From positions 1-64,000 of the IMG/VR virus record IMGVR_UViG_3300032240_002285: a stretch of 64,000 bases of DNA; one strand, written 5' to 3'. A program made the translations under genes and the position numbers. Below the pieces are notes generated by a model. That model saw only the letters and a program-made list of their open reading frames with translations, made no database searches and had not been told where the DNA came from. Of the stretch, positions 2,125 through 63,836 are shown one piece after another. This DNA is from a virus. Each line of letters starts with the position of its first letter. Positions within the stretch are counted from its first letter, which is position 1.

Positions 2125-2940
2125 ATGATTGCAGCAGATTCAGAATTTTATTCATCACCATATTATTTTTTCCTTAGAGACAAAGGAGACAAATACTCGT
2201 TATATTTCTCTGTAGAGGGAAGTTTGAACGAAGCACGTAAAAAAGATGAGGTTATTCACTTCCCTAAAAAGGATGGTGAGAAAGTAAAAAACCACATTAA
2301 AAAAATCGCCAAAGAGAAAAAAATTAAAACAACTAAAGGTGTAAAGAAAGATTTGGAAGAATTGGTTAATTTGGACGGAGCAATGTCAAATTCCAAAATA
2401 CCAATTTTAGACCCTAAATTACATCCAAAGAAAACAATGGACCAAACTGTTGCCGCAGCTAGAATCACTAATGACCCAATTTCTCGTGGTTATAGGACTT
2501 ATTATGGTGAATCTGTTGAAGAAGAAGTTAATGAAATTGATTTATCGGGAGCGTTTGGTTATGAAGAAACTGAAGACATGGATGGTCCTGAAACTTACAA
2601 ATACTTGGTTAAGAAGATGAACTTAGAACCAGATGATGCTAAGGAAAGAACAAAACAACAAGGTAAAGACCCTTCAGGTAAGAAAGATAAAAAATCAAAA
2701 TACTACCACGATAAGAATTTTATAACAAGAGCAACTCTTTCAGAAATTCAAAAACAAAAAATGATTAAGGTGGTTGAAGATATTTTGATGGGTAAAAAAA
2801 ATTCTGATACATCAGAAGTTGGAAAAAAAGAATCTGAAGTTTCTAGTATATTAAAGAAAAATATTTCTTCATTAAAGAAACAAGCTGAGAAAGAAGGATT
2901 AACGGTTGCAGAATTAATTAAATTATTAAAGAGTGAATAG
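2125..2940 (+). CDS. Hypothetical late protein (K/E-rich, candidate head-internal protein)
   Basis: 271-aa ORF after a late motif; several x-x-E sites (LNE, VNE, LSE). Confidence 0.75.
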   Translation: MIAADSEFYSSPYYFFLRDKGDKYSLYFSVEGSLNEARKKDEVIHFPKKDGEKVKNHIKKIAKEKKIKTTKGVKKDLEELVNLDGAMSNSKIPILDPKLHPKKTMDQTVAAARITNDPISRGYRTYYGESVEEEVNEIDLSGAFGYEETEDMDGPETYKYLVKKMNLEPDDAKERTKQQGKDPSGKKDKKSKYYHDKNFITRATLSEIQKQKMIKVVEDILMGKKNSDTSEVGKKESEVSSILKKNISSLKKQAEKEGLTVAELIKLLKSE

Positions 2941-3400
2941 TAGTTTATACGATAAAGAAATTGAATTCCCTTCGGATAAAAGAAGACATATGAAAATATG
3001 TTTTGATAAAGCCGTTGGTGCAGATGCAAATACTGAAGGTTATCTTAGAAATAAAGAACTTCAAGACCAAAAATTTATTTCATATAAGCAACTTAAAAGA
3101 ATTAAAAACTTTTTTGATAATTTTAAAGGTAATGAAAAAGAACTACCATTTATTTTAAATGGAGGTGTTGAAATTAAAAATTGGGTTGACAATGAGTTGA
3201 GAAGAATGAGGGATTTTATCAAGATGACCAAAACCAACAAGATGAACACAGGAATGCAAAACCAATTCTTAGACCCTCATGAAAAGAAAGATTTTAATAA
3301 CGTAAGAGCGTCTCAAAAACATTTAAAGACTACCGACAAATATGATGTTGCGGTAACTGAAAGCCTAAAAAGAATAAATGAAATAATGTCAAAACTATAA
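2933..3400 (+). CDS. Hypothetical late protein with a scaffold-like C-terminal helix
   Basis: 155-aa ORF; C-terminus ESLKRINEIMSKL resembles the scaffold C-terminus. Confidence 0.75.
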   Translation: MNSSLYDKEIEFPSDKRRHMKICFDKAVGADANTEGYLRNKELQDQKFISYKQLKRIKNFFDNFKGNEKELPFILNGGVEIKNWVDNELRRMRDFIKMTKTNKMNTGMQNQFLDPHEKKDFNNVRASQKHLKTTDKYDVAVTESLKRINEIMSKL

Positions 3401-3404
3401 AAAC

Positions 3405-3698
3405 ATGGCAAACGAATTAACAGTTGATTTAAGTCAAAATGAACCAAATGCATTGACAGCAATTGCAGACCAAGAAAGAGCTAGACTTATACCTAGAAAT
3501 GATTACAATGGAATTGGAAATCCATATTCGGCAACCAATCAAGATGCGGTCGCTAACGGTGATGATAAAGGTAGAGGTACTGGCGTTTTTCTTGATGTTT
3601 ATAATCCCGCAGCAGGGACTATTACAGATGTTGTAGAAAGAAAAAATGAAATAAAAATAAATAAATTTAACTCATCAAAACCCTACCCTAATTTCTAA
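3405..3698 (+). CDS. Hypothetical protein
   Basis: 97-aa ORF in a tightly packed operon. Confidence 0.75.
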   Translation: MANELTVDLSQNEPNALTAIADQERARLIPRNDYNGIGNPYSATNQDAVANGDDKGRGTGVFLDVYNPAAGTITDVVERKNEIKINKFNSSKPYPNF

Positions 3699-4123
3699 TG
3701 AAACTTCAAGAGTCATTAAAAGGATTACTTTGTGAAATTGCTTCTATTGGTAGTGTACAAGATGCTATAAATAAAAAGCAAGTAATTACAATTTACTATG
3801 ATGGCGATGAACCTGGTGGTAGAGGTATTCGTGAAGTTGAACCCGTAGCTTTAGGTAAAAGTAAAGCAGGAAATTTAGTGATGAGAGGTTGGGACCGTGA
3901 AGGTGCTTCTCATACGGCATATAAAGGCGAAAAGCCATTACCAGGATGGAGATTATTTAGATTAGATAAAATCTTATCGTTGAAACCTACTGGTGAGGTT
4001 TACAATCAACCCCATCCAGGTTATAATTTTAACGGGGATAAAAGCATGGCTAGTATTATTACAATTGCAAAATTTGATAACAATCCTGTCACACCACCAA
4101 CTCCTGAACAACAAACAGTTTAA
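3698..4123 (+). CDS. Stand-alone WYL-domain protein
   Basis: AINKKQVITIYY...REVEPVAL...WRLFRLDKILSL matches the WYL pattern; no HTH or WCX domain. Confidence 0.8.
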   Translation: MKLQESLKGLLCEIASIGSVQDAINKKQVITIYYDGDEPGGRGIREVEPVALGKSKAGNLVMRGWDREGASHTAYKGEKPLPGWRLFRLDKILSLKPTGEVYNQPHPGYNFNGDKSMASIITIAKFDNNPVTPPTPEQQTV

Positions 4124-4132
4124 TTTAAAAAC

Positions 4133-4771
4133 ATGGACCAATTAATGCAAAAACTTATGGTATCTAAAGCCATAATGGACAAGACAGAAGGAATTTCTAA
4201 AAGTGATTATAGACCACAATCTAATCAAATGTTAACGCCAGAGTTTGATATCCCTCAAGCAAAATATAATATTCCTCAAGAATTCTTACAGGAGGCACCC
4301 CAACAAGGACAAATGATGCAACCTTATTTGTCAGAAGCACCAAGAGTTAATACAAAACCTGTGGGTAATCCAACTGTTGACGCCATTAAAAATTCAAGAC
4401 TTCCTGACGAAATTAAAAAGTTAATGATGGAACATCCCATTGCACAACCTCAACAACCAACAGCTACATTATCTGATGATTTAATTGAAAGAGCTTCAAG
4501 ATTAATGAAAGAAAACGGTAACAGTTATTTACCTGATTCCGCAAAACCTCAAACGGCTCAAATTCCTCAATCAAAAACTCAAACACACACAACCTCATCA
4601 TCTATTGATTATAAGCTAATCCAAAAGATGATTAAAGAAGCGGTTAAAGATGCTTTGTCCGAAAATGGATTAATTGCCGAAAGTACTGAAAAATCTAACG
4701 AAGTATTCAGTTTCAAAGTTGGTAAACACGTTTTTGAAGGTAAGGTAACTAAAATTAAAAAATTGTCTTAA
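4133..4771 (+). CDS. Hypothetical P/Q-rich late protein
   Basis: 212-aa ORF with the helix LIQKMIKEAVKDALSE. Confidence 0.75.
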   Translation: MDQLMQKLMVSKAIMDKTEGISKSDYRPQSNQMLTPEFDIPQAKYNIPQEFLQEAPQQGQMMQPYLSEAPRVNTKPVGNPTVDAIKNSRLPDEIKKLMMEHPIAQPQQPTATLSDDLIERASRLMKENGNSYLPDSAKPQTAQIPQSKTQTHTTSSSIDYKLIQKMIKEAVKDALSENGLIAESTEKSNEVFSFKVGKHVFEGKVTKIKKLS

Positions 4772-4826
4772 CCCCTTTCTTTATCTGACATAAATTATTA
4801 TATTTTATTGAATACAATAATTTAAT

Positions 4827-6038
4827 ATGTCAAAAATCAAAGTTTTAGTAGTACCATCCGACCGTACAGGTGTTGGTAAATTTAGGTCTGTAGACCCTCA
4901 CGTTTTTCTTCAGAATTTATACGGAGATGATTTCCACGTAGATATCGTATATGAACCACCATATGATGATGTTAACTTTTGGACTGATTATCAAATAGTA
5001 TCTTTCCACAGAAGTATTGGTCCTGATTTTGATAAGGCAAACCGATTAATCCAAATGTTAAATTCATTAGGCGTTATCACTGTTGGTGATATTGATGACT
5101 ATTGGATGCCAGGTAAAGAACACCCTATTCACGATGTTATTAAATTTAATAAGATTAATGAAAAGATTGTTGCCAACCTTAAAGTTGCAAAATATGTGAC
5201 AACAACCACAGGGTTATTTGCAGATGAAATCAAAAAGATTAATCCTAATGTAGTTGTGTTCCCTAACGCAATTAATCCAAATGAGTCTCAGTTTAAAGAA
5301 CCGACAATTGAATCGGACAGATTACGTTTTGGTTGGTTAGGTGGTTCATCTCACTTACACGATATTCAGTTATTAGACCAATCTTTAGGTAAAATTACTC
5401 ACTTAAAAGACAAATTCCAATTTGTTTTATGTGGCTTTGATACAAGAGGAACGGTTACTGAAATCAATTCAGCAACAGGAGAACATAATAAAAGAAACAT
5501 TTTACCTCATGAAACTGTTTGGGCATCTTATGAAAAAATATTTACCCAAAATTATTCAACAGTTTCTGAAGAATATAAAAAACATTTATTAACTTACGGA
5601 CAAGAAACTTATGCGAATGAAAACAGCGAAGCGTATTCAAGAGTATGGACAAAACCTGTTACGTCTTACGCTAAAAATTATTCAAAGTTTGATGTTTCTT
5701 TAGCACCAATTAAGAATCACATGTTCAACAGAATGAAGTCACAGTTAAAAGTTATTGAGGCAGGATTCTACAAGAAAGCAATTATTGCATCAAACTTAGG
5801 TCCATATACAATTGATATTAAACATTGTTTAGACCACGGTAACTTTGTTGATGGTAATGGTTTATTGGTTGATGAGCAAAGAAACCACTCTGACTGGGCG
5901 AAGTATATTGAGAAACTAATTAAGAATCCTAATATGGCTAAAGATATGGGAGAGAGGTTATATGAAACAGTTAAAGACACATACGATTTAAACGTAGTTA
6001 CAAAAAACAGAGCAGAATTTTATAAATCAATTATATGA
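4827..6038 (+). CDS. Glycosyltransferase, GT-B fold (GT4-like)
   Basis: DIDDYW, FPNAI, GWLGGSSH, LAPIKNHMFNRMKSQLKVIEAG. Confidence 0.85.
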   Translation: MSKIKVLVVPSDRTGVGKFRSVDPHVFLQNLYGDDFHVDIVYEPPYDDVNFWTDYQIVSFHRSIGPDFDKANRLIQMLNSLGVITVGDIDDYWMPGKEHPIHDVIKFNKINEKIVANLKVAKYVTTTTGLFADEIKKINPNVVVFPNAINPNESQFKEPTIESDRLRFGWLGGSSHLHDIQLLDQSLGKITHLKDKFQFVLCGFDTRGTVTEINSATGEHNKRNILPHETVWASYEKIFTQNYSTVSEEYKKHLLTYGQETYANENSEAYSRVWTKPVTSYAKNYSKFDVSLAPIKNHMFNRMKSQLKVIEAGFYKKAIIASNLGPYTIDIKHCLDHGNFVDGNGLLVDEQRNHSDWAKYIEKLIKNPNMAKDMGERLYETVKDTYDLNVVTKNRAEFYKSII

Positions 6039-11657: not shown

Positions 11658-12463
11658 GTAATTTGATATCCTGTAATTTAATGGGAGGACTTGGAAACCA
11701 ACTTTTTCAAGCAGCACATGCCGTCTCACATGCAATGAAATTAAACAGAGAGGCGGTTTTTGTACCACATTCGTGGACTCCAATGCAAGGGAGACAAACC
11801 GAAAATTATCTTGACAACATTTTCAGAAATTTGAAATTTGTTGAAAGTATTGATGGATTTGAAAAAGTTAGTGAAGGTCCATGGGAATACATAGATGTTT
11901 ATGCGAAAGAACACAATACAGTTTTTGATGGATACTTCCAAAGTAGTAAAAACTTTTTTGGATTTGACGACGAGATTAGAAAAATCTTTTCACCGACAGA
12001 AGAATTTATTCAAGAAATGTATGTGAAACATCCAGAACTTAATCAAGAAAAAACTTTATCAATTCACATTCGTAGAGGAGATTGTTTTATGAATCCTGAC
12101 ATTCATCCAATCGCAAATAAAAAATATGTGGAAAGGGCACTAAAAGAGATTGGAGAATATTCTCATGTATTTGTTTTCAGTGACGATAAAGACTGGGTTA
12201 AAGAAAACTTGAAATTTGAAAATGTAACTTATGTTGATGATGTGGACTATAAAGAAATGTGGTTAATGTCACTATGTAAAAATCATATAATGGTTAACTC
12301 TACATTCTCTTGGTGGGGAACTTTTTTAAACCCAAATAAAAATAAAAAAATAGTCGCCCCTTCAATTTGGTTTGGACCAAGAGGCCCAAGAAATTATCAA
12401 GATATCTACGAACCATATTGGACGGTATTAGAGGTTAATTACGAAGACGGATGGTTAAGTTAA
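11654..12463 (+). CDS. GT11 alpha-1,2-fucosyltransferase-like protein
   Basis: GGLGNQLF, GYFQS, HIRRGD, FSDD, NSTFSWW. Confidence 0.9.
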   Translation: MSNLISCNLMGGLGNQLFQAAHAVSHAMKLNREAVFVPHSWTPMQGRQTENYLDNIFRNLKFVESIDGFEKVSEGPWEYIDVYAKEHNTVFDGYFQSSKNFFGFDDEIRKIFSPTEEFIQEMYVKHPELNQEKTLSIHIRRGDCFMNPDIHPIANKKYVERALKEIGEYSHVFVFSDDKDWVKENLKFENVTYVDDVDYKEMWLMSLCKNHIMVNSTFSWWGTFLNPNKNKKIVAPSIWFGPRGPRNYQDIYEPYWTVLEVNYEDGWLS

Positions 12464-13269
12464 ACATGTTATCGAGAAATTTCGCACATGACAAAGGGTC
12501 AACTGCGAACAAGGCACCTGTTCATATCGAATGGTGTTTTAACAGTTACGATAATCCAATTTCTGTTTATTTGGATAACGATTTGTTTAAAGGTATTGAA
12601 GACCACAAAGTTGATGGTGGAGAAAAAAAGAAATTTCTTTGGGTTATTGAATCAAGAAAGTTTGATGGTGGTGCAATAGACAATATCAAAAATAATTTAG
12701 ACGCAGTACTTGAAACATTTGAGCAAATTTGGACTCATAATGATGAACTATTACAGTTAAGTTCAAAATTCAAATGGACACCAGCATATGGTAGTTACAT
12801 TAAAGAATTTGGTATTCATCTCAAAACTAAAATGGCTTCTATGATTACTTCCGATAAAAGATGGACACGTCAACATGAAATCAGACACGATTTTGCTATG
12901 GCAAACAAAGACAAGATTGATGTATTTGGAAGAGGAATTCAAGAAATTCCAAACAAAGAAATTGGTTTGAAAGATTACCGTTTTTCTTTTTGTGTTGAAA
13001 ATGATACGTATGACACTTACTTTACTGAAAAAATATTAGATTGTTTTGCAACAGGAACTATACCTGTTTATATGGGTACTCCAAAAATTGTAGAGTACTT
13101 TAACTCGGACGGTATTATTTTTTTCGACGGTAATTTTGATGTATCAACATTGACAGAGGAATTATATAATTCCAAAATAGATGCAATAAAAGATAATTAT
13201 GAAAGAGTACAAAAATATAGTGTACTTGACGATTGGATTTTTGAAAACTATCTAACTTACTATGTCTAA
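12451..13269 (+). CDS. GT10 alpha-1,3-fucosyltransferase-like protein
   Basis: YRFSFCVEN...YFTEKILDCFATGTIPVYMG. Confidence 0.85.
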   Translation: MVKLNMLSRNFAHDKGSTANKAPVHIEWCFNSYDNPISVYLDNDLFKGIEDHKVDGGEKKKFLWVIESRKFDGGAIDNIKNNLDAVLETFEQIWTHNDELLQLSSKFKWTPAYGSYIKEFGIHLKTKMASMITSDKRWTRQHEIRHDFAMANKDKIDVFGRGIQEIPNKEIGLKDYRFSFCVENDTYDTYFTEKILDCFATGTIPVYMGTPKIVEYFNSDGIIFFDGNFDVSTLTEELYNSKIDAIKDNYERVQKYSVLDDWIFENYLTYYV

Positions 13270-29866: not shown

Positions 29867-31369
29867 ATGTCAATCTTAAGGTCATACATAGATAAGAATA
29901 ATACTATCATATCAAATTCTTACGTCAACACGGGAAGAAACCCTGTTATTGAATTAAATTTTGGTGCATCAGATTACGTAGTACCTAACTACGGATTCAC
30001 AAGATTCATCTTTGAATTAGATTTAGCATTACTTAGAGAAAATATTACTTCAGGGGTAATTTCAACAGGGTGTACTTCGGCGATGACTCATACATTAAAA
30101 ATGACAAACACATCGTCATTTGATAATGAACTTTTAAATTCGTTTATGTCAAACAAAAGAAGACGAGCGACATCATTCGACCTAATTTTATTTAGAATCC
30201 CTCAGGCGTCAGGTACGACAGGTCCATCTCAACAATGGGATGAAGGAGTAGGTTACGATTACAATGATTTTAACTTAGCTCAGAATAGTGCCATAGGAGG
30301 TTCATCCCCTTTAACATATGTAGATAGTAGAGCATACTCTACAAGACCATCAAACTGGTACCAAACATCTACAATTTCAAATTGGACCCAACCAGGAATT
30401 TATGACAACAAAGACCAAGGAACTGTTAATTACTCAGGTCTAACGATTATTGCAAGACAACATTTTGAATTGGGTAATGAGGACATTAACATGGATATGT
30501 CGGATGAAATCAACGGTATTCTTAATGGTTCAATCACAGGTGTTACAGGATGGGGATTGGCTTATTTACCTCAAATTGAAAACTTGACAGGTTTAACTGA
30601 AAGTTATAGTGTGGCATTCTTTTCAAGACAAACACAAACATTCTATCAACCATATATGTTAACAAATTATGATGACATAATCAAAGACGATAGAAATGTA
30701 TTTCTAAAGAATCAAATAAATAAATTATACCTTTATGTTTATCAAAATGGTGACTTGGTTAATTTAGATTCTGACCCGTTTGTTAGAATTGAAGATAGAA
30801 ACGGGGATGCCGTTAGTGGTATGTCTTCATTAAACACATGTTTGAGAACCAAAGGAGTTTATGAAGTTGTTGTTCCCAACGGGTTTACAAATCAACCTAC
30901 ACCGTGTTTATTCTACGATGTATGGTCAGGATTAACAATTAGTGGACAAAGTCTTCCAAACGTAACAAATCAGTTTACCCTACAACCATATTCCGCGGGA
31001 ATTCAAATTGGTTCAGTATCTCAAGACCCTACCAAATTTGGTTTTGATTTCTATGGTATCTTACAAAACGAACAAATACTTAATTCCGACATAAGAAAAG
31101 TAGGGGTTACAATTAAGAAAGCCTACACAGGACAAGTACCATTACAAAATATTTCAGCATTCTATAGAGTGTATGTAAGAGAAGGTACGACAGAAGTTCA
31201 AGTTCAAGATTGGACTCCAATCAACAGAACTCCAAATGAATATTATTTTATCTTTGACATGAGAGATAAAATTCCAAATCAATATTATGTTGATATTCAA
31301 GTGAATACATCAGGTGAGAAAGACACCTATAAAAAACAATTAACATTTAATATCGTAAATAAAAAATGA
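29867..31369 (+). CDS. Virion structural protein (beta-rich, baseplate/tail region)
   Basis: 500 aa, N/T/G-rich, WDEGVG motif, late motif upstream. Confidence 0.65.
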   Translation: MSILRSYIDKNNTIISNSYVNTGRNPVIELNFGASDYVVPNYGFTRFIFELDLALLRENITSGVISTGCTSAMTHTLKMTNTSSFDNELLNSFMSNKRRRATSFDLILFRIPQASGTTGPSQQWDEGVGYDYNDFNLAQNSAIGGSSPLTYVDSRAYSTRPSNWYQTSTISNWTQPGIYDNKDQGTVNYSGLTIIARQHFELGNEDINMDMSDEINGILNGSITGVTGWGLAYLPQIENLTGLTESYSVAFFSRQTQTFYQPYMLTNYDDIIKDDRNVFLKNQINKLYLYVYQNGDLVNLDSDPFVRIEDRNGDAVSGMSSLNTCLRTKGVYEVVVPNGFTNQPTPCLFYDVWSGLTISGQSLPNVTNQFTLQPYSAGIQIGSVSQDPTKFGFDFYGILQNEQILNSDIRKVGVTIKKAYTGQVPLQNISAFYRVYVREGTTEVQVQDWTPINRTPNEYYFIFDMRDKIPNQYYVDIQVNTSGEKDTYKKQLTFNIVNKK

Positions 31370-31833
31370 CAAAGGTAGTAAAACTTACAGAACAAGATTT
31401 AAATAGACTTGTTAACAAAGTTCTTAAAGAACAAGATGAAGCGAATTATATGCTTTTTAGCAATTTAGAACAAATTAAAAGACAATGTGAAATGATGTTG
31501 GAAATGGACCCCCATATGATTGACCAGTTAATCAATAATGGACACGATTGGGCCGATGACCATATCACTGAAGCAAAGGTCAACATAGACCAAGTATTTG
31601 ATTTTTTCAAAAATGAATTTGCTAAAAAAGACGAATACGTAGATTACGAGGAAATGATGGCAGAAAGCAGAAAGAAAACAGGAACTCCACTTTGCGCTAG
31701 GGGAAAAGCTTCAGCGAAGGCAAAATTTAAAATTTACCCTAGTGCTTACGCAAATGGTCACGCTGTTCAAGTTTGTAAAGGTAAAATTAAAGGATTAGAC
31801 GGTAAGAAACACTGTTCAGGTGCTTATTGTTAA
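31366..31833 (+). CDS. Candidate head-internal protein with a KLTEQDL leader and a Cys/basic C-terminal domain
   Basis: MTKVVKLTEQDLNRLVNKVLKE; LCARGK...YPSAYANG...C. Confidence 0.75.
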   Translation: MTKVVKLTEQDLNRLVNKVLKEQDEANYMLFSNLEQIKRQCEMMLEMDPHMIDQLINNGHDWADDHITEAKVNIDQVFDFFKNEFAKKDEYVDYEEMMAESRKKTGTPLCARGKASAKAKFKIYPSAYANGHAVQVCKGKIKGLDGKKHCSGAYC

Positions 31834-31846: not shown

Positions 31847-32545
31847 TTAAGGAATTCTATTATAATGTTCTCTTAAAGCGTTTTTTATTGTATCTCTAAG
31901 AGATTCATTTTTCGGCTCGTAGTGAGTCATTTTTGGTTGGTTGCCAGTACCACTTTTGGAATGTGTTTTTTCGGCTTTTCTTTTTTGTTGACACGCAGCT
32001 TTCTTTTGAGAATCGCTCATTTTACTTGCTACACCTGCAGCCCTACATTTAGGATATCCTTTATCACTAGCTTCAGGTCTACCACATGGCGGATGTTTAC
32101 CACCTTCTTTTTTACGACAAATATTGACCCATGGCCCCTTTGGTTGTGAACTGCCTTTTGGAGCTTTCTTTTTACCAAACCAAACTGCCAAATCCTCTTT
32201 AAGAAATCCAACGGCTTTGTCAATAACCTCATCAGGATTTTCAATGTCACCAATACTACTACCTTCGTCGTCGTTCTGACCAGTATAAAAACTTTTCAAG
32301 TATGTATCAATTTTAGATAATATTTCAGTTTTATCTTCAATTTTTGCTCTTTCTTCGGGAGACTCTTTATAATCGTCTCCACTAGCCTCTTCATATGCTA
32401 ATTCTGCATTGGTGTATTGATAAACAGGAATATTAAATGGCCCTAATTGGTCTTCAGTCCATGCTTGGGGTGCTAAAACAATTGGTACTTTAAAATGACC
32501 AGCACTTCCTGACCCTGTCGCTTCACTAATTCTTTTATTTTTCAT
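31847..32545 (-). CDS. Candidate head-internal protein with a Cys/basic domain
   Basis: RISE leader; EDLAVWF...WVNIC...PCGR...YPKCR; late motif at 32551-32558. Confidence 0.75.
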   Translation of the reverse strand: MKNKRISEATGSGSAGHFKVPIVLAPQAWTEDQLGPFNIPVYQYTNAELAYEEASGDDYKESPEERAKIEDKTEILSKIDTYLKSFYTGQNDDEGSSIGDIENPDEVIDKAVGFLKEDLAVWFGKKKAPKGSSQPKGPWVNICRKKEGGKHPPCGRPEASDKGYPKCRAAGVASKMSDSQKKAACQQKRKAEKTHSKSGTGNQPKMTHYEPKNESLRDTIKNALREHYNRIP

Positions 32546-34696: not shown

Positions 34697-36220
34697 TTAT
34701 TGTAACTTACTCATTAAGTCCTTCATTCTCATGAACTGAGGATTCTCATAAGTTTTAGATTCAATTAAAGTAGTAGATGAACCTGTAGAAACTGTGTTAT
34801 TAATTTTTTGTCCTACCGACTCATTTATTGATTTTGAGTCAATCTTAGTTAATTCTTCTTTGATTGATTTATAAAGACCTTTTGATTCTTTAAGTGTCTC
34901 AACATCGTCAAATCTTCTAAGAATGTTAATTTTTTCTTTTTTAGTTGTAGAGTGTTCAGTGAACAATCTAGTTGCGTAAGCTAAGTTAGAGTTGAATATA
35001 GCAACTTCCGTTAATTTTTCTCTGAAAACATTTAACGCTTTTCTATACTCTTCATTTTTTTCTCTTAACATAGAAACTTCCGCTTCTAAAGATTCAACAG
35101 TTACACCGTTATTTCCATAAACATAGTTTCTGTTGTTTGTAATGCCCTTTCTTAATCCTCTACCTTCTTTGGAACCACTTCCATAAGTTCTTGCAGCTTC
35201 TTTTGTTTCTTCTTTTTCAAACGCTTTTCTTTTTAAAGTATCACCTTTTTTAGTAGTGTAATCTTCATCATCTTTGTGAGTCTTAGATTTGTCACCCTTA
35301 TTCATTCCGTAATCACCCTCTTTTGTTTCAGCTTTAACAACTTTAGATTTACCTTCCATGTTAGCACCTTTCTTGTATTCAAATTTAGCTTTACCAGTAC
35401 CAACTGCCTTTGGACCTTCTTTTTTGTCCTCGTCAAATCCTCCTTTAGCCTTATTGTCATAAGAGAATTTTGGTCCTTTACCAATTCCAACACCTTTAGG
35501 TTTTACCGAAGATTTTGATTCATTAGTGAAATATTCTTCCTCTAATTCTTCTTCCATTTCTTCGTACATTTCTTCGTCCATTTCTTCATCCAATTCTTCT
35601 TCCTCATCTTCGTCTAATGAAATCTCATAAACAACTTCTTCGTCGTCTTCTTGTTCTTCCATTTCAGATTCGTATTTAGGAGAATTTATTCCTGACATAT
35701 TACCATCAAAAATTGCTTTGATAACCTCGTCAACTGATTCATCTGAATCGTCAGCGTAATCCATTTCATTCATTGTTTCTTCCTCTTCTTCTGATTCACC
35801 AAGTTTAACAAGATATTCTACATCGTTATTATCATCTGATAAATGAATTTCGTTACCATCTTTTTTAACGATGATTCCGTCATCTTCACCCATCGCTTTA
35901 AATACTTTCAGAATTTCTTCGTCAGTAGCGTCAGTTAAATCTATTGGACTGTCAGAGTCAATGTTCATGTCCATATCAATGTTCATTCCCATATCGTCAT
36001 TATCAACCGCATCTCCTTCATCACCTAATGATGGGATAGCAGCATCTATTTCAACCTCATCTTCTTCATTTTCTTGTTCAGATAGAGATTCTTTTACTAA
36101 TTGATTGATTTCTTCCTTCATTGTTGAAGCAAGTATTCCTTTTGCATTTTCGGCAATTGCCTCTTCAACGTTTTTCATTTGAATGAGTGCCTCTTGTACT
36201 AATGATTTATTTTCTTGCAT
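34697..36220 (-). CDS. Prohead core/scaffold protein (gp22-like position)
   Basis: Acidic coiled coil immediately upstream of the capsid gene; late motif at 36244-36251. Confidence 0.8.
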   Translation of the reverse strand: MQENKSLVQEALIQMKNVEEAIAENAKGILASTMKEEINQLVKESLSEQENEEDEVEIDAAIPSLGDEGDAVDNDDMGMNIDMDMNIDSDSPIDLTDATDEEILKVFKAMGEDDGIIVKKDGNEIHLSDDNNDVEYLVKLGESEEEEETMNEMDYADDSDESVDEVIKAIFDGNMSGINSPKYESEMEEQEDDEEVVYEISLDEDEEEELDEEMDEEMYEEMEEELEEEYFTNESKSSVKPKGVGIGKGPKFSYDNKAKGGFDEDKKEGPKAVGTGKAKFEYKKGANMEGKSKVVKAETKEGDYGMNKGDKSKTHKDDEDYTTKKGDTLKRKAFEKEETKEAARTYGSGSKEGRGLRKGITNNRNYVYGNNGVTVESLEAEVSMLREKNEEYRKALNVFREKLTEVAIFNSNLAYATRLFTEHSTTKKEKINILRRFDDVETLKESKGLYKSIKEELTKIDSKSINESVGQKINNTVSTGSSTTLIESKTYENPQFMRMKDLMSKLQ

Positions 36221-36890: not shown

Positions 36891-37610
36891 TTATTTTCCT
36901 AAATAATCGTTCAATTTTTTCATTAAGTCAAGGGATTTATTTGATGAAGTATCCATTGATTGTTTTATCTTTTTTTCTTCATCTAAATTTTCTTCATATT
37001 TTCCTCTGTCTTCAGGGTTTGAAAATAAATAAGCACCAGGTGTTGAAGGCGAAGACACTAAGTCAAAACAAATTAATTCAAAATCATCTTGTACTTCATT
37101 TCTTTCCCCAACTTTTTTTAATGAACCAACTCCTCTTGATGAAACTCCCATAGTTACTCCTTGTCTCATTAAATTAGCTGCTTGGTCTCCTTTTGTTGAA
37201 ACAATTCCACTTTCATGAAATCCTGGTGAAGTTAATAGTTTGAGTTTACCCATCAATATATTTTTATCCCACCATATATCAGTGATAATATGAGATACTC
37301 TGTCTAAGTCAATCAATGACGACTCAGGGTGGTTAAGTTCTGATGTTGATAAACCTTTAGCAATAGCCTTCTTATAATTGTCAGCTTCTCTTTTTAAAAT
37401 TCTTTCAGGGTAGAATCTACCGTTTCTATTTGGGGTGTCATACTTTTGTAAAACCGCATAGAATTCAAAAGGATTTCTATAATCAAGTGTCGCAGCCTCT
37501 TTTAGAATTTCAAAATTACGATGGTCTTTAGGCGATACCAAACCAGCATCCATTTCAATTAATATTCCGTGACCTAATTCGTTGGCCTCTAAGATTCTTA
37601 AATTTTTCAT
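36891..37610 (-). CDS. gp21: Prohead protease (T4 gp21-like)
   Basis: NRNGRFYP, ELNHP, GVSSRGVGS, FDLVSSPSTPGAY. Confidence 0.92.
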   Translation of the reverse strand: MKNLRILEANELGHGILIEMDAGLVSPKDHRNFEILKEAATLDYRNPFEFYAVLQKYDTPNRNGRFYPERILKREADNYKKAIAKGLSTSELNHPESSLIDLDRVSHIITDIWWDKNILMGKLKLLTSPGFHESGIVSTKGDQAANLMRQGVTMGVSSRGVGSLKKVGERNEVQDDFELICFDLVSSPSTPGAYLFSNPEDRGKYEENLDEEKKIKQSMDTSSNKSLDLMKKLNDYLGK

Positions 37611-38188: not shown

Positions 38189-38374
38189 ATGTTAATAGTA
38201 GAAATTAAAAATAACGAGAGTATTGAAAGAGCCTTAAAGACTTTAAAATCTAAAGTTATCAAGACTAAGCAAAATCAAATACTTTTTGAAAGAAAACAGT
38301 TTGTTAAGAAATCACTGACAAAAAGAGTGAAAAAATTAAAAGCTATCTACAAACAAAAATTAAATAACGATTAA
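38189..38374 (+). CDS. rpsU: Ribosomal protein bS21 (phage-encoded, Bacteroidota type)
   Basis: MLIVEIKNNESIERALKTLKSKV...ERKQFVKKS...KAIYKQ; ATG at 38189. Confidence 0.9.
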   Translation: MLIVEIKNNESIERALKTLKSKVIKTKQNQILFERKQFVKKSLTKRVKKLKAIYKQKLNND

Positions 38375-39069
38375 AGAGACTCCTCTAAATTTTTTATTTT
38401 TAAAAAATTCATTTGGTCAAACTTCTCGTTTTTAATTCTATCAATTGTTTCTGATAACTTTGTCTTCATTTCAAACTCATCTTCTTTTTCTAAAATTGTT
38501 TGAAGCTTAGATACTGCGCTCTCACGGATAGTTTCAAACTTAGTTTCAAGTGAAGCGGTATCTTCTGAAATGATTAAGAAAAATTCTTTTTTAGAATTCT
38601 CATCAAGAGTATCAATGTAATTCTTTAATGTTTGGTTAGCAATACTAACCATAGATTTTAATGGAATGTTAATAGATTCCTTTATAGTACGATTAGTTGA
38701 CGTTAACAATTTAATAATATTCTTTTTTGAATTAATTCTCTCGTGTATATCCAATTTATTTAGATAAACAATAGAATCAATGTCAGAATATTTATTTTCA
38801 ACATTTTCGGATAATGTTGATGGCAATTTAATACTTGGTAATAATTTTTGAATTAAATTAATACCTTCTTCTAAAAAATCTTTAGCGTCGGATTCGGATA
38901 AACTTTGGGGTGTACTTAACTGGTCGTACAAAGAATATATCTTTGACATAGTTTTATTACTCAAAACATTATGCTTGAATTCTTTAAGTGACTTTTTGAA
39001 ATCTTTTTCATTTTGATAAGATTCAATTAAGCTGTTTTCTATTATGGATTTGATTTGTCCGAACGTCAT
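38371..39069 (-). CDS. Hypothetical head-module protein
   Basis: 232 aa, helical; late motif at 39088-39095. Confidence 0.75.
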   Translation of the reverse strand: MTFGQIKSIIENSLIESYQNEKDFKKSLKEFKHNVLSNKTMSKIYSLYDQLSTPQSLSESDAKDFLEEGINLIQKLLPSIKLPSTLSENVENKYSDIDSIVYLNKLDIHERINSKKNIIKLLTSTNRTIKESINIPLKSMVSIANQTLKNYIDTLDENSKKEFFLIISEDTASLETKFETIRESAVSKLQTILEKEDEFEMKTKLSETIDRIKNEKFDQMNFLKIKNLEESL

Positions 39070-44068: not shown

Positions 44069-44806
44069 TTATTTTTTTAAAATGTCCATAATAGTATCAA
44101 TAACTTTATCCTTAGCAATCTCAGGACTTATTTTCTTAGCCTTAGGATTTGGTTTTTCACCAGGGTGTGGGTTTTTCATTGGATGTGAAGGCCTTGTTCT
44201 AGGCTTAACATCAGGTTTAGTTCTGACAGGAGCCGTTTTAGTGTCTCCTCCCTCAGAAAGATATTTTAATAACTCACCTTTAGTCATTTTTGGTTGTATG
44301 TGTTTTTCCACGAGCTTAGATATTTCATTTTCTAAGAACAAAGATAGTGGATTTTTTCCTTCCGACAATTGTTTTTTTACAGATTGTACACATCTCTCAA
44401 ATTTTCTTGTTTTTTTAGGTCCAACTTGTGCGTGGCATATTGCCCATGGATTTGGTTGACCTGGCTTTAAGTCTGCTTCGCTTTCAAACATACCCATACC
44501 GTCATCTTCAGTTTCGAATCCGTCATCTGATGATGGACCTACTTGTTTCGGGTCTTGAGTTTCAGTTTCTTTATTTGGGTCAACTGTAACTTCTTCTTCC
44601 TCGTCAAGTTCTTTTTCATAAACTTGGAAAGGTTTCTTTTCATTTTTTAACTTGGTAATTGTTGCAGTATCTGTTTTTGAAACATTTATTTGTTCCACAA
44701 CTAATTTCTTGTGTAGAATGTCAATTTGTGATTCAGTTAATTTTGAAACAGTTTTTGAAGATAAACCGTTTTCTATGAGTTCAAGAGCTTTTTTATTAAT
44801 TTTCAT
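44069..44806 (-). CDS. Hypothetical protein with a KLTESQ motif
   Basis: 245 aa; KLTESQIDILHKKLVVE, NPWAIC...FERCV. Confidence 0.75.
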   Translation of the reverse strand: MKINKKALELIENGLSSKTVSKLTESQIDILHKKLVVEQINVSKTDTATITKLKNEKKPFQVYEKELDEEEEVTVDPNKETETQDPKQVGPSSDDGFETEDDGMGMFESEADLKPGQPNPWAICHAQVGPKKTRKFERCVQSVKKQLSEGKNPLSLFLENEISKLVEKHIQPKMTKGELLKYLSEGGDTKTAPVRTKPDVKPRTRPSHPMKNPHPGEKPNPKAKKISPEIAKDKVIDTIMDILKK

Positions 44807-45194
44807 ATACTACTTTTTGTTCAAATTCTAAAATCAAATCTCTTTCATAGAGTTTGTCTTTTATTTCTTTTTCGGTATTACCATATCGGAATACCAATCT
44901 TTTTTGGCCATTTTGGTCATCTTCTTCCCAAGCTAAAGCAACAACATCATCAATTGCATCTACCATAGAAAAAAAATCGGAGTTCTGAATCAATTCCAAT
45001 TTTATATTAGTATTTCTCAGAACTCCAACTTTTTTAATGTATTGTAGTTCAGGTGGTGTTGGGTAACTGTTTGATGGTTTGTTATCCCATCCGTCACCCC
45101 ACACATCTTCTAAACTATCAGAAAAAATAAACTCGTAAAGATTGTCTCCCTTATAATTAGGTCCTAAACCGTTTACGTAAGTTAAATAACTCAT
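44796..45194 (-). CDS. Hypothetical protein
   Basis: 132-aa ORF overlapping both neighbours. Confidence 0.75.
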   Translation of the reverse strand: MSYLTYVNGLGPNYKGDNLYEFIFSDSLEDVWGDGWDNKPSNSYPTPPELQYIKKVGVLRNTNIKLELIQNSDFFSMVDAIDDVVALAWEEDDQNGQKRLVFRYGNTEKEIKDKLYERDLILEFEQKVVYEN

Positions 45195-46711
45195 AATATA
45201 TTACCCTCTGGTGAAATCTTAACTTGTCCACCTTTGTTTTCAAATACTAAATTTTTCTTATTTGTAATTCCTACAAATTTAGAGTTAGAGTTTTCTTGTA
45301 AAAATTTCTTAGCAGCCATTTCTTGTTCGAATGTCTCAGTCATTGTTACAACTGTTTCCATAACTTTTTTAACTTGTAAGTTTTTTTGAGCTTTCTTTTC
45401 TTTGCTTTCTAAAATTTCTTTTTTTGAAGTTTCAAAATATTTTGAAATTACTTTGTCTACTTTAGATTCTCCGAATATACTATCTAAAATTGCCCCATTG
45501 TCAGATTTTTTAGCAGTTCTAACTTTGAATGGTTTACCATGTTTTTCTTTATACATGTTAAAGATTTTATTACCTAATTCCCCTTTACCAAACCATCCAT
45601 GTTTTCCACCATATTTTTTTTCAAGTGATGGAAAATCTTCAAATTCTTCTTCATCATAATCAGAAAAAACATCTCCATGACTTTGAGCGTCTACGTCATC
45701 AAACCAACCATGTTCATCATCAAATGAACCAATCATTTTTGGTTTACGAGTTGGTACGTGCCAGTTAGAGCCTTTCCCAAAGTTTCCTTCTTTTTCAGAA
45801 TCAGACATATCAGATTCATCATCAGCAGCATTGAAGTAAAAATCTTCATCTACTTCACCTTCTACAGGTAAATCCATATCTGCTTGGATATCTTCTACTT
45901 CACTGTCGTCAGTTAAGTCTTCTCCACCCATGTCGTCACCACCTAAATCAACGCTATCTTTGTCAAATTTGTTTACGATATCTTCCTTATCTTCTTCTGA
46001 TAATTCTTTTAAGTTTAATGAAGATAACACCATGTTAATAACATACTTGATGTCTTCAGAAGTCATTCCTTCATTGTTATCCAGAACTCTAATTTTTTGT
46101 GTAAGTTTTCCAGTTAATTTTTGAATAGTTTTAAATGTAACTTGTTCGTCATCGTCTTCTTTCTCAGTTGCATCAATGTCAACATCTACATCAACATCAT
46201 CCACCTCAGGTGCCAACTCGTCACCCATACCCATTTCATCTCCCATTGGTGATGCAGGCAATTCAGGTGATGGTACTGCTGGAGGTGCTGCAGGTAATTC
46301 AGCAGCTGGTGCTGGTGCTTCAACCGCTGGCTTTGGAGTTTTTAATGTAAATTTCTTTTGTTCACCATATAATGAAACACCTTCTTCATTTTCATTAATC
46401 CTATTCAATTCTCCTGCAACTAAATTTAATCTTTTTAATGCTTGAGAGTATGAAGAATAGTATTTTCTATTTTTCATTGGTTCAATGTAATCTGTCTCAG
46501 ATTCAGAAATAGTTTTCTTGATGATATATCCTTGTCTTTCTCTAACAATTTGATAGTTGTTACCATCAGCCAAAGAAACTGAAAACTCAGACTTTGAAGT
46601 TTCATTAATAGGTTGTGGAAGAGTTTCGTTGAAACGAGCGATTTCCATGATTCTATTTATCTTATCTTGGCCCTGTAACTTTTCACTTCCAATTGGTTTT
46701 AAATTTGCCAT
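45191..46711 (-). CDS. Acidic prohead-core-like protein
   Basis: 506 aa; QDKINRIMEIA leader; P/A and D/E tracts. Confidence 0.7.
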   Translation of the reverse strand: MANLKPIGSEKLQGQDKINRIMEIARFNETLPQPINETSKSEFSVSLADGNNYQIVRERQGYIIKKTISESETDYIEPMKNRKYYSSYSQALKRLNLVAGELNRINENEEGVSLYGEQKKFTLKTPKPAVEAPAPAAELPAAPPAVPSPELPASPMGDEMGMGDELAPEVDDVDVDVDIDATEKEDDDEQVTFKTIQKLTGKLTQKIRVLDNNEGMTSEDIKYVINMVLSSLNLKELSEEDKEDIVNKFDKDSVDLGGDDMGGEDLTDDSEVEDIQADMDLPVEGEVDEDFYFNAADDESDMSDSEKEGNFGKGSNWHVPTRKPKMIGSFDDEHGWFDDVDAQSHGDVFSDYDEEEFEDFPSLEKKYGGKHGWFGKGELGNKIFNMYKEKHGKPFKVRTAKKSDNGAILDSIFGESKVDKVISKYFETSKKEILESKEKKAQKNLQVKKVMETVVTMTETFEQEMAAKKFLQENSNSKFVGITNKKNLVFENKGGQVKISPEGNIL

Positions 46712-52215: not shown

Positions 52216-52869
52216 ATGATAAATTTAATTCGTAAAATTTTATTGGAAGAAACTAAAGATGAATCTAACTTTGATAGATTACTCAATAAATTCAAAAAAA
52301 ATTTCCCCGATGAATTAAAATCTAAGGCAGATGCCATCAAAAACTTTGTAGTTAATTACGTTAAAGAAAAAGGGTATACTATTAAATTTTTAAATTCTTG
52401 TAGTACAGGTTTTAGTGGTGTCAGAACAAAAAATCAAATTATTATTTGCTCACCAGCAAATATGCATACCATAGGTGATTTTCTTTACACTATTTTTCAT
52501 GAAATAAGACATGAACAACAACTAACTGAATTCAAAGAAAAAAATCCTTTAACAGATTATGATTTAGAGGATTTTGAAACTCTATACAAACAATATTGGG
52601 ATATGGAATTGGATGCTGATAAGTTTGGTAAAGAAATGATTGCAAAACTTGTAATGGCTTTAGATATACCATTAGATTTTGCAAAACAACAATTTAATTT
52701 GTCACTATACATAAAACAATACCCCTTTATGTCAGAAGTAATCAAGCGTAATATCAAAACAATTATTGAACAAATTAAAGAACTAAAAAATGCTGGAATA
52801 GAATTCACAGATATTCAAGACCATCCAATCGTAAAACGTCATTTGGATAAGTTAGAAAACTTTTTATAA
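52216..52869 (+). CDS. HExxH zincin-like protein
   Basis: FHEIRHEQQ...ELDADKF; leader LIRKILLEE; late motif at 52204-52210. Confidence 0.7.
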   Translation: MINLIRKILLEETKDESNFDRLLNKFKKNFPDELKSKADAIKNFVVNYVKEKGYTIKFLNSCSTGFSGVRTKNQIIICSPANMHTIGDFLYTIFHEIRHEQQLTEFKEKNPLTDYDLEDFETLYKQYWDMELDADKFGKEMIAKLVMALDIPLDFAKQQFNLSLYIKQYPFMSEVIKRNIKTIIEQIKELKNAGIEFTDIQDHPIVKRHLDKLENFL

Positions 52870-58082: not shown

Positions 58083-58491
58083 GGGGATGGCCAGGCATTT
58101 GATTTCAGGTGTTAAGGGTAAGTTGCAAGTAGTCAGATTTTATCTATGACTTAAATCTATGGTAAAGAAGAATAACAGGCAATACATTTGCAAAATTAGC
58201 AGCTTTAGGTTTAACTAAAGAAGCTGGTGTTACAGTAGCTTAATAGTGAACTAACAGACGAGTCGGTGAGCATATAACTTGGGAACAGAAGCTCTTAAAG
58301 TGGATACTACTTAGTGTGTCAAAAGGTCTCGTTCAGAGGACTACCTTAATAAAAGTGAACTCGACACAGTTATTGGTAACAATGTCAAAATAGGAACCAA
58401 TTATTTTTCTATTGAGAACTAATAGAATAAACTTGTAGTAACTTGCTGTTAAGCAGGAAAGACCGCGGTTCGACTCCGCGCATCTCCACCA
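58083..58491 (+). ncRNA. ssrA: tmRNA (SsrA)
   Basis: 5' GGGGATG pairs with 3' CATCTCC-ACCA, with a G3-U70 pair; T-arm CGCGG-TTCGACT-CCGCG; tag frame 58178-58243. Confidence 0.92.
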
Positions 58492-58942: not shown

Positions 58943-59016
58943 GCTCCGTTGGACAAATTGGTGAAGTCGCCTCCCTTTCACGGAGGAGATTAGCGGTTCA
59001 AGCCCGCTACGGAGTA
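58943..59016 (+). tRNA. tRNA-Glu(TTC), CCA not encoded
   Basis: Acceptor GCTCCGT/ACGGAGT; anticodon arm CCTCC-CTTTCAC-GGAGG; T-arm AGCGG-TTCAAGC-CCGCT. Confidence 0.9.
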
Positions 59017-59066
59017 CATTTAGTTAATCACTACACAATATCAAATAAAAACCTTACTTTTATAAA

Positions 59067-61569: not shown

Positions 61570-62289
61570 ATGAATAACGAGGTTAACAAAATTATATCGG
61601 TATATACCACAATACTTGAGAATAAATCAATATTACAGGAATTTAATTCCGTAAGCCTTGCGGATACTAATTATTCAAATGTAAAATTTAATAATGACTC
61701 AACAAGAAATGATTCGGTTAACAAAGCTCTCTTAGATGATATTCAACAAGCAGCCTCTAATGTTGGTATAGTAGCAACAATTACAACAGCAAAATCAGGA
61801 CATAGTGAAAAAACCACTACAGGTAATACAAGTAGACATTCAACAGGTGCTGGAGTTGATATTGCAAAGTTGAATGGGATTGGTTCGGATAATGCGACGA
61901 GTGCTATGGATGGTAATCCTGAATTTAGAAATTTAGGAAATAAACTCAAAGATTCTTTAGTGTCATTAGGTTATACTTGGAATACAGAGTCGGGAAATCC
62001 AAAGGCAGTTTTATGGCAAACAAACTCTGGAGGTAACCATTATAATCATTTACATGTATCCAATAATTCGGGAGAAACTTCTGAACCAACAAATTCTAAA
62101 GACTCAAGTGAATTAGGAGATTTAAATAAAAACTCGGTAACATCTACATTGTCAAATTTAATGTCGACCGCATCCAAAAGTTCTTCGCAGTCTATAACTC
62201 CTGACCCTTTGATTATGGCATTTGCAAATAAACTTACAAGTGCGTTGGGTCTCACAGAAAATATCAATAAAATTAAAAGATTATTATAA
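61570..62289 (+). CDS. M15-like zinc peptidase (peptidoglycan hydrolase candidate) with terminal helical motifs
   Basis: SRHSTGAGVD (H-x6-D) and HYNHLH; late motif at 61557-61563. Confidence 0.7.
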   Translation: MNNEVNKIISVYTTILENKSILQEFNSVSLADTNYSNVKFNNDSTRNDSVNKALLDDIQQAASNVGIVATITTAKSGHSEKTTTGNTSRHSTGAGVDIAKLNGIGSDNATSAMDGNPEFRNLGNKLKDSLVSLGYTWNTESGNPKAVLWQTNSGGNHYNHLHVSNNSGETSEPTNSKDSSELGDLNKNSVTSTLSNLMSTASKSSSQSITPDPLIMAFANKLTSALGLTENINKIKRLL

Positions 62290-62317: not shown

Positions 62318-62321
62318 TTTT

Positions 62322-62945: not shown

Positions 62946-62966
62946 TTTTTTTGATTAAGGTTTAAT

Positions 62967-63003
62967 AAAAACCCCCAACTTAAAATTAAATTGAGGGTTT
63001 TTT
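62967..63003 (-). terminator. Intrinsic terminator
   Basis: AAAAACCCCCAA...TTGAGGGTTTTT hairpin. Confidence 0.7.
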
Positions 63004-63019
63004 ATTTTTACAAAATTAA

Positions 63020-63175
63020 TTATTTTGCTACTGTTGTGTCTGCAACTACTGCAATTGTGTCAGCTTTCACTGAATCTGCAACTACTGCAGTTGAATCAGT
63101 TTTTACTTCAGTTGATGTTGAGCCTCCGCAAGAAGCTAATGTTAAAATTGATACTAATGCTACGATTTTTTTCAT
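63020..63175 (-). CDS. Small lipoprotein (51 aa) with four D(S/T)x sequons
   Basis: Manual translation MKKIVALVSILTLASC-GGSTSTEVKTDSTAVVADSVKADTIAVVADTTVAK; lipobox LASC. Confidence 0.8.
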   Translation of the reverse strand: MKKIVALVSILTLASCGGSTSTEVKTDSTAVVADSVKADTIAVVADTTVAK

Positions 63176-63216
63176 AATTGTTTTTTTTGTTTTTTATATA
63201 ATAGTTAATTGTTTTT

Positions 63217-63308
63217 TGGCAGAAGGTACCAGATTCGAACTGGTGGATAGGTTTAACCCCATCCGCAGTTTAGCAAACTGCTGGTTTAAGCCACTCACCC
63301 AACCTTCT
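63217..63308 (-). tRNA. tRNA-Ser(GCT)
   Basis: Acceptor AGAAGGT/ACCTTCT-GCCA; anticodon arm GCAGT-TTGCTAA-ACTGC; long variable arm; TATATTTG promoter at 63323-63330. Confidence 0.93.
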
Positions 63309-63386
63309 ATAAATTGGTAATACAAATATAACAAAAATCCCCCAATTTTTCAATAGGGGGAAAGTTAATAATAGAAAATTTTAAGT

Positions 63387-63836
63387 TTATTTTAAGAATC
63401 TCAACTTATATAAAGTAGAAAAAATTAATTCTTGTACTCCATCAATTTGATTTTGAATATATGATTCTTTAACACCTTTTCTATTTTTTTCAATGTTATC
63501 ATCCAAAGCTTTGAAATAAGATATTAATTGTTCAGTTGATTTATAGTCAACCATTTGAATTGTTTTGTATCCTGTTATTATATCATATTTTCCTTGGTAA
63601 CTTTCAACAATACCATCAATTAATTCAACAATTTCATCATAATATGTCCCTAAAGCCATATGTTCTGCAAATGATGATTGAGATTTGGTTTGCCAATGAA
63701 AAATATGTGCTTGGCTTCTTGAATGAAGTAATGTTGCAATCATATCTACAACATCTCCTGTTTCTGTTGTTTCTTTTTGTTCGTTAAGCTTCATAGCTTT
63801 AAACAACTGTTCTTTAGTTATTGTTACTTTGTCCAT
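63387..63836 (-). CDS. Ferritin/Dps-like protein (DUF5856-like) with an N-terminal leader
   Basis: QAHIFHWQT...EHMALG..YDE...DGIVESYQG; late motif at 63841-63848. Confidence 0.8.
   Translation of the reverse strand: MDKVTITKEQLFKAMKLNEQKETTETGDVVDMIATLLHSRSQAHIFHWQTKSQSSFAEHMALGTYYDEIVELIDGIVESYQGKYDIITGYKTIQMVDYKSTEQLISYFKALDDNIEKNRKGVKESYIQNQIDGVQELIFSTLYKLRFLK

Follow-up and report, generated by a model that had tools for sequence, protein, structure and literature searches.

We analysed a window of 64,000 nucleotides at the start of a viral contig of 99.7 kb (IMG/VR record IMGVR_UViG_3300032240_002285), and found that the protein encoded on its + strand at 31366-31833 (hereafter 31366) begins with a 22-residue amphipathic helix that recurs on thousands of other proteins, many of them otherwise unrelated. 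We put at roughly 0.5 the probability that this leader resembles the capsid-targeting sequence (CTS) of phage T4, that is, a tag that would load its cargo into the prohead and then be clipped. The initial annotation of the window had proposed modular, portable terminal tags bearing a T4-type protease motif on unrelated late proteins, in two classes: an amphipathic helix ending in (L/I/V)-x-E (type A) and a helix resembling the C-terminus of the scaffolding protein (type B). This proposal fits one kind of tag, the leader of 31366, but the two motif classes fail as they were drawn.

A conserved leader at the N-terminus of 31366

31366..31431, + strand: long-form leader, residues 1-22 of the 155-residue protein 31366-31833, ending in L-K-E (recognised by the foreign-family model, by profile A1 and through orthologues)
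31432..31833, + strand: cargo part of the same protein, with a helical HDWADDH region and a Cys-containing YPSAYANG module

Across 37 unique orthologous sequences, the leader of 31366 reads M-x-K-[IV]-[IV]-K-L-T-E-x-D-L-x-x-[IL]-V-x-K-V-L-x-E-Q, and the consensus of the long form in general is M-K-K-I-I-K-L-T-E-S-D-L-x-R-I-V-K-K-V-L-x-E, a 22-residue amphipathic helix. The clearest support for its identity came from an independent model, built solely from 84 mutually unrelated carrier families that other contigs encode and applied to the 122 proteins (30,057 residues) of this contig. Protein 31366 scored 41.4 bits, against 5.4 for the runner-up and at most 5.5 in 20 shuffled proteomes, and the tag that the initial annotation assigned to this protein is thus well above the decoys. 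Furthermore, a six-frame scan of the contig with a leader profile (A1) returned a single match, the 31366 leader, at 63.2 bits. No second member of the leader family was found in the contig by a hidden Markov model (HMM) of the 31366 orthologues, by ungapped position-specific scoring matrices (PSSMs), by half-motif PSSMs or by the 84-family model, and 31366 is the only statistically secure member of the family in the window.

The C-terminal module of 31366 matched phrog_27331 (1.1e-13) as well as small hypothetical proteins of Pelagibacter and Prochlorococcus podophages, and a homologue search with residues 1-40 returned mainly orthologues. As a separate observation, three small Cys-containing modules of the window are common to many aquatic phages: YPSAYANG...CKG (31366-31833, +), WVNICRK...CGR...YPKC (31847-32545, -) and NPWAIC...CV (44069-44806, -).

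The leader is portable among proteins of other phages

Profile A1, which comprises 30 columns and 19 instances, was searched against 1.84 billion representative proteins and matched 8,072 of them at E<=1e-3, including 102 at E<=1e-10. Among the best 150 of these matches, 139 lay within the first 35 residues by hand count; in the other 11 the best match was internal, and each of these proteins had at least two matched stretches. All ten internal-match proteins that were inspected also started with a long-form leader or with the short form described below. Many carriers have another leader, either in the middle of the protein or at its C-terminal end, and resemble fused or polyprotein-like two-module proteins (for example at loci L030 and L194).

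The same portability was apparent at the level of individual loci. In 172 related loci, the 31366-orthologue HMM scored at least 10 bits in 53 open reading frames (ORFs), the remainders of which formed at least 8 mutually unrelated groups. Of the 54 leader copies, 47 were N-terminal, and two lay at the C-terminus of orthologues of protein 31847-32545. A position-blind DNA pattern for K-L-T-E-S-D-L-x-R-I-V-K, scanned over IMG/VR, gave 123 matches in 119 loci, and an in-frame ATG was located within 7 codons upstream in 120 of the 123. These 119 loci held 201 leader matches; the 185 cargo remainders obtained from them grouped into 84 unrelated clusters, and the median length of the proteins was 130 residues. 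Pfam domains on the 84 cargo representatives were confined to LysM (2), PG_binding_1, HD, PIN_12 and two weak others. At the end of the leader, the 84 representatives had Glu at P1 in 81 cases and Ile or Leu at P3 in 75, with P2 variable, and the ten residues that followed were 70% polar, compared with 55% in the proteome.

The genomic context of the carriers was examined as well. A prohead protease of the S77 family was encoded in 9 of 10 large carrier contigs, including all four complete ones, and complete genomes of 268-321 kb contained 7-14 leaders each. Co-occurrence of the leader with the late motif, a check that the initial annotation had called for, was borne out: TATTTAT lay upstream of 99 of 192 leader genes compared with 378 of 1,143 control ORFs (Fisher p 1.3e-6). 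In the clade of the window, the carriers are directly beside the capsid gene. A full-text literature search of main texts retrieved no paper that contained the leader motif strings or described such an environmental leader.

The head module of the window

CheckV estimated the completeness of the 99.7-kb contig at 26%, and the phage, uncultured and of the T4 type, is therefore probably giant. The closest cultured relatives are Flavobacterium phage immuto and Microcystis phage Mel-JY01, with ~41% identity in the capsid protein, and IMG/VR holds hundreds of close relatives. The head genes are as follows.

40984-42744, - strand: large terminase
39096-40946, - strand: portal, gp20-type (Pfam Portal_T4, 7e-76)
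38371-39069, - strand: probable prohead core protein, between portal and protease (no family match)
36891-37610, - strand: prohead protease of the gp21 family (Pfam Peptidase_S77, 3e-22, 79.5 bits with a cut-off of 27; PDB 5jbl, 1.2e-13)
34697-36220, - strand: acidic scaffold-position protein of 507 residues (assigned by position and composition; family searches gave no match)
32848-34653, - strand: major capsid protein, Gp23 family (Pfam Gp23, 6.6e-73; matches T4 gp23 structures)

Given the protease match, the premise of the initial annotation that a gp21-type protease is present was sound. Alignment of the major capsid protein to T4 gp23 placed the mature N-terminus near residue 45, and conserved candidate maturation sites were located at F-L-E36 and I-N-E59. 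Among the 122 proteins, 38371-39069 had the highest density of [LI]xE, with 14 sites in 232 residues versus 5.7 expected from composition. By gene order, this protein occupies what we take to be the interval of T4 gp67/68 between portal and protease, and by this analogy it probably serves in the prohead core and is cut into fragments; its site density weakly favours loading followed by clipping. Residues 1-49 of the scaffold-position protein were almost invariant across 38 orthologues and preceded a variable acidic stretch. The last residues of this segment, Q-L-V-K-E-S-L-S-E-Q, are similar to the leader's second half and likewise place L-x-E-Q before an acidic run, a likeness that slightly favours the same reading.

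The initial annotation had placed nearly all tagged genes behind a late motif. TATTTAT indeed precedes many of the named genes, along with scaffold, protease and portal: it was found 11-36 nt upstream of 2125, 29867, 31847 (complementary strand), the scaffold, protease and portal genes, and the genes for the zincin, M15-like and ferritin-like proteins. The operon that starts at 29867 contains 31366.

Phage immuto (MW353176.1) has N-terminal likenesses of its own. Two neighbouring proteins at 4712-6012 and a third near the protease gene (12322-12549) share a different N-terminal peptide, N-F-D/N-L-K/R-x-F-L-x-E-N-K-L-T, and two further proteins start with M-K-K-S-Q-[LI]. These N-termini suggest that leader systems differ between phage lineages.

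Two further features of the contig were recorded. A 690-residue ORF (3-2072, - strand) that runs off the start of the window ends C-terminally in a tandem 20-residue unit (IPLSNLESLDIPIGELLYNI twice). ARAGORN identified a tmRNA and genes for tRNA-Glu, tRNA-Ser and tRNA-Trp at 58083-58491, 58943-59017, 63217-63308 and 63908-63979.

Other candidate leaders in the window

31868..31909, - strand: degenerate leader-helix copy at the C-terminus of 31847-32545, NESLRDTIKNALRE (residues 213-226 of 232; via orthologues)
52216..52251, + strand: N-terminal short-form leader, MINLIRKILLEE, of the HExxH (zincin) protein 52216-52869 (via relatives)
63780..63836, - strand: optional N-terminal extension, residues 1-19, with L-N-E before Q, of the ferritin-like/DUF5856 protein 63387-63836 (from presence or absence in homologues)
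44693..44743, - strand: leader-like helix, KLTESQIDILHKKLVVE, residues 22-38 of 44069-44806 (ambiguous)

The four proteins above had all been assigned type A tags. For 31847-32545, the convergent neighbour of 31366-31833, this assignment drew support from orthologues, but the protein's own C-terminal copy reached 7.7 bits only. A C-terminal pattern ...L.x.[LI]I.x.[VIA][LI].E, followed by 2-7 variable residues, was kept in 42 unique orthologues, and in the two orthologues L001 and L012 a full leader replaced the degenerate C-terminus, scoring 24.3 and 46.7 bits in separate scans. The N-terminus of the same protein is also of note: residues 1-8 read M-K-N-K-R-I-S-E, with A-T-G-S-G-S next, [IL]-x-E ahead of a Gly/Ser linker is retained by nearly all orthologues, and four orthologues start with a short-form leader instead of the usual N-terminus. 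Judged by this pattern, the N-terminus of 31847-32545 may be a minimal propeptide.

The short form, M-K-x-L-I-[KR]-[KR]-I-L-x-E-E, matches residues 1-12 of the zincin. These residues were conserved in 13 orthologues, with Glu11 in 13 of the 13 rows shown. In the fetched loci, the short-form core (the 8 residues behind Met) yielded 24 N-terminal candidates in 12 unrelated clusters, including the zincin family; across 21,131 frames, the 8-residue core occurred 227 times, against ~5 by chance according to a rough hand estimate from residue frequencies. Most of the 227 matches were at protein ends, and 170 of them belong to the long leader. A half-motif PSSM placed the zincin fifth of 28,959 (12.1 bits), but its score of 1.7 bits on the 84-family long-leader model was noise. 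Relatives thus point to a tag at the zincin N-terminus as they do at the 31847-32545 C-terminus, and in both cases the assignment is a candidate made through them. The zincin label of the initial annotation has as its basis HExxH at residue 95.

For the ferritin-like protein, which matches DUF5856 and PHROG 858, the N-terminal extension proved to be optional among homologues but showed no similarity to the leader HMM. Homologues at 73 loci were either 118-125 residues long and lacked the extension or were long forms of 145-170 residues. The extensions include at least three unrelated types that terminate in [LIF]-x-E-Q-E, whereas another long-form type does not; an added propeptide would be expected to show this kind of pattern. 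In 44069-44806, KLTESQIDILHKKLVVE was the best non-self match of the first-half PSSM (13.5 bits) and was conserved in 11 orthologues, but the full leader model gave 3.3 bits, within the decoy range, and the helix is not at the extreme N-terminus.

Of 19 [LI]-x-E-Q sites in the proteins of the whole contig, 10 fell near N-termini (residues 6-45) versus 3.1 expected, a count that serves as a lead only, as the pattern was picked after the data had been seen. Its carriers include 22061, 25588 and 28074 and, beyond the window, 74783, 75447 and 76516.

A C-terminal helix possibly shared by scaffold, 2933 and protease

34700..34738, - strand: conserved C-terminal helix QFMRMKDLMSKLQ of the scaffold-position protein, with L-I-E just before it
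3359..3397, + strand: C-terminal helix ESLKRINEIMSKL of 2933-3400, resembling the scaffold end
36894..36935, - strand: conserved C-terminal helix SLDLMKKLNDYLGK of the protease 36891-37610, after a variable linker
4133..4180, + strand: N-terminus MDQLMQKLMVSKAIMD of 4133-4771, with weak likeness to the scaffold end (best HMM score 7.8 bits, E 3.4, not significant)

The scaffold C-terminus, L-I-E-S-K-T-Y-E-N-P-Q-F-[LM]-R-[MI]-K-D-L-M-S-K-L, was near-invariant in 38 unique orthologues, with a variable region upstream. The initial annotation had likened three other protein ends to it, and a rank test favoured this for 2933 but not for the M15-like protein or 46711. Under a PSSM made from the scaffold only, the last 10 residues of 2933-3400 ranked first of 28,959 non-self windows (15.9 versus 11.3 for the next), exactly at the C-terminus, and this end was kept behind a variable linker in 56 unique orthologues, down to 46% identity. 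The M15-like C-terminus ENINKIKRLL (62257..62286, + strand; one orthologue fetched) and QDKINRIMEIA near the N-terminus of 45191-46711 (46637..46669, - strand; 2 unique sequences) both fell outside the top 25 windows. The M15 label itself has its basis in SRHSTGAGVD...HLH, recognised by eye, and no Pfam or NCBIfam match was obtained.

The protease end, absent from the earlier type B list, also resembles the scaffold end. Its LDLMKKL ranked sixth among non-self 7-mers under the scaffold PSSM, and four of the top 10 non-self matches to the 7-residue scaffold core, the protease C-terminus among them, lay within 10 residues of a protein end (binomial p 0.008; 1 of 200 shuffles). In scaffold, 2933 and protease, column entropy was low over the last 10-14 residues and high just upstream. 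The scaffold and 2933 ends are nearly invariant within the clade and hence offer no usable covariation. Orthologues of 4133-4771 begin with MEDLMSKL or SDLMQKL. Protein 2933 had no homologue in cultured phages and no match in Pfam, PHROGs, NCBIfam or a PDB profile search, and the ESM Atlas gave viral hypothetical proteins only. Type B as a widespread portable tag was dropped after an HMM scan of 21,131 frames matched scaffolds only. The comparisons of these ends are suggestive of a second signal limited to scaffold, 2933, protease and perhaps the N-terminus of 4133.

Proposed mechanism and alternative explanations

According to the account in PMC9026906, T4 gp21 cleaves after L/I-X-E, the first 10 residues of IPIII are enough for incorporation into the T4 head, and foreign proteins have been packaged in T4 through CTS fusions. 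Docking, cleavage, packaging and delivery are what we infer by analogy for the present leader. The leader helix would dock its protein to the scaffolding core during prohead formation, and cleavage by the S77 prohead protease behind the conserved I/L-x-E would subsequently release the cargo within the head. The scaffold-type C-terminal helix could be a further docking element through which scaffold, 2933 and protease converge on one site of the shell or core. In the window, credible cargo by sequence criteria would be 31366, 31847-32545 and the zincin, perhaps also the ferritin-like protein, and 2933 by a different signal.

A wider form of this model is more tentative, and we hold it with less than even confidence. 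The 22-residue leader and an 11-residue short form might together serve a large uncultured clade of T4-type giant phages as an address label that can be read from sequence. In that case, ~8,000 carrier clusters would be loaded into heads and probably injected, and two-leader proteins would be polyproteins split by the prohead protease in the capsid. The leader might then imitate the invariant N-terminal helix of the scaffold (QLVKESLSEQ, with the same acidic stretch next) and co-assemble into the core.

It is also conceivable, though we regard it as unlikely, that the helix is truly portable and addresses a membrane, DNA, the tail or baseplate hub, another assembly or its own kind, with I/L-x-E as a binding face and not a cut site. 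The basic character of the leader helix and its one strongly hydrophobic face would suit such docking, as would the C-terminal and internal copies, which cleavage could not remove, the LysM or PG_binding_1 domains on some cargo, and the distance of leader clusters from head genes in complete relatives. Against it, I/L-x-E with a free middle residue and a polar linker behind it has the look of a gp21-type site as described in PMC9026906. Moreover, the S77 protease accompanies the leader in nine of the ten large carrier contigs, carriers adjoin the capsid gene in the window's clade, and leader genes are enriched behind the late motif that is common to head genes.

Several observations weigh against a head-loading tag and temper our estimate. 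The cargo of 31366 is not basic (isoelectric point 6.2), and 31366 is the single protein of this contig that passes the leader model. LysM or PG_binding_1 domains were present on three of the 84 cargo representatives, which would suit a role in lysis equally well. The S77 co-occurrence of 9/10 lacks a baseline from random large IMG/VR contigs, and many leader genes of complete relatives are tens of kilobases from the protease gene. Leader copies also occur at C-terminal or internal positions, and at a C-terminal copy, cleavage behind the Glu would leave the helix attached, unlike a T4 propeptide. A tblastn search with a 30-residue leader found no match among 50,697 GenBank phage records, and all carriers are known from the sequences of uncultured phages alone. 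As for type B, the likeness rests on the rank test, the HMM score being 1.4 bits and below the decoys at 6.9, and the type B HMM run over 21,131 frames gave nothing significant beyond scaffolds.

A more sceptical explanation, which we consider improbable for the leader itself, is that most of the listed strings are ordinary amphipathic helices, alike through a proteome rich in Lys, Glu, Leu and Ile and through a common helix N-cap pattern. That pattern, hydrophobic-S/T-x-x-D/E-hydrophobic, is widespread. Chance resemblance does account for most of the remaining listed items. All the quoted peptides exist in translated ORFs, and 10 of 11 are no more than 38 residues from a protein end; the eleventh, LIQKMIKEAVKDALSE of 4133-4771 (4616..4663, + strand), proved to be internal: it spans residues 162-177 of 212 and is conserved, but a further 35 residues that form a conserved C-terminal domain come after it. 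As a tag, a helix ending in (L/I/V)-x-E affords no discrimination: [LIV]xE occurs 604 times in 30,057 residues (2.0 per 100), and a site ending at residues 8-40 is present in 65 of 122 proteins, compared with 44% of internal windows of the same size. The top PSSM matches were not enriched at termini (4 of 20 versus a background of 12.6%), and WYL, 4133, M15-like, 46711 and 44806 all scored within the decoys. The WYL label was confirmed (Pfam, 26.4 bits with a cut-off of 21.8), and the N-terminus of this protein (3698..3736, + strand) is conserved, but it bears no likeness to any leader model and gives no sign of being separate from the domain. The type A set as one family was dropped after the family HMM, the PSSMs, the half-motifs and the 84-family model agreed on 31366 alone. 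Nevertheless, ordinary helices leave unexplained the 31366 leader (41-63 bits; 8,072 clusters), the excess of core matches (227 versus ~5 by the rough estimate, mostly at protein ends) and the 2933 C-terminus, which is the top scaffold-end match and exactly terminal.

Least probable, and in our judgement a distant prospect, is that the shared 5' gene segment serves mainly as a DNA-level homology patch for cassette swapping with the peptide incidental, as tandem carrier arrays (up to 7 in <=15 kb), fused two-leader ORFs and the exchange of one N-terminal form for another in 31847 orthologues might suggest: the third codon position of the leader is the least conserved (identities of 0.69, 0.79 and 0.52 at positions 1, 2 and 3) and its conserved Leu residues are drawn from both TTA and CTN codon families, which therefore indicates selection on the peptide. 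A DNA patch and a peptide tag are mutually compatible.

Significance and comparison with known systems

If the leader loads the head, the injected protein repertoire of abundant environmental giant phages would be readable from their genomes, and anti-defence and take-over factors, nearly all without annotation, would likely be part of it. The practical yield of the window is narrow, with few credible cargo proteins: the toolkit of WYL, zincin, ferritin and peptidase that the initial annotation envisaged as cargo is mostly unsupported, and the WYL and peptidase parts of it have no support.

Known precedents for the type B ends are the coat-binding C-terminal helix of scaffolding proteins and the C-terminal capsid-targeting tails of prohead proteases, as in P22 and HK97. 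The present ends are similar in that the scaffold-position protein and the protease each finish in a conserved helix behind a variable linker. They differ in that 2933, otherwise unrelated and unannotated, has the same kind of helix, a likeness that is weak by HMM.

The phiKZ-like phages (phiKZ, 201phi2-1 and SPN3US) are likewise giants, in which, as outlined in PMC5694885 and PMC9026906, a diverged gp21 homologue processes many of the head proteins after Glu, and their propeptides have been proposed to target proteins into the prohead. Those propeptides, however, are mostly longer than 100 residues, have the motif S/A/G-x-E and do not form a single shared sequence, whereas here one conserved portable leader recurs.

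The closest parallel is the T4 CTS of IPI-III and Alt, which gp21 removes and which is described in PMC9026906, PMC3012670 and PMC5694885 as a short N-terminal peptide on unrelated, fast-changing proteins, ending in Leu/Ile-x-Glu. Loading of foreign proteins by such tags is already established in T4 according to PMC9026906, and is thus not new. The phage analysed here shares with T4 a gp21-family protease, a Gp23 capsid protein and a gp20 portal, with the genes in a late context. Its leader measures ~22 residues in the long form or ~11 in the short form, compared with the 10 given for T4, the two being likened by features and not by comparison with the T4 sequence. In addition, it can be C-terminal or present as a second internal copy, arrangements known here from sequence alone. 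Finally, unlike the T4 CTS, the leader occurs in thousands of protein clusters, and each complete genome has 7-14 genes with it.

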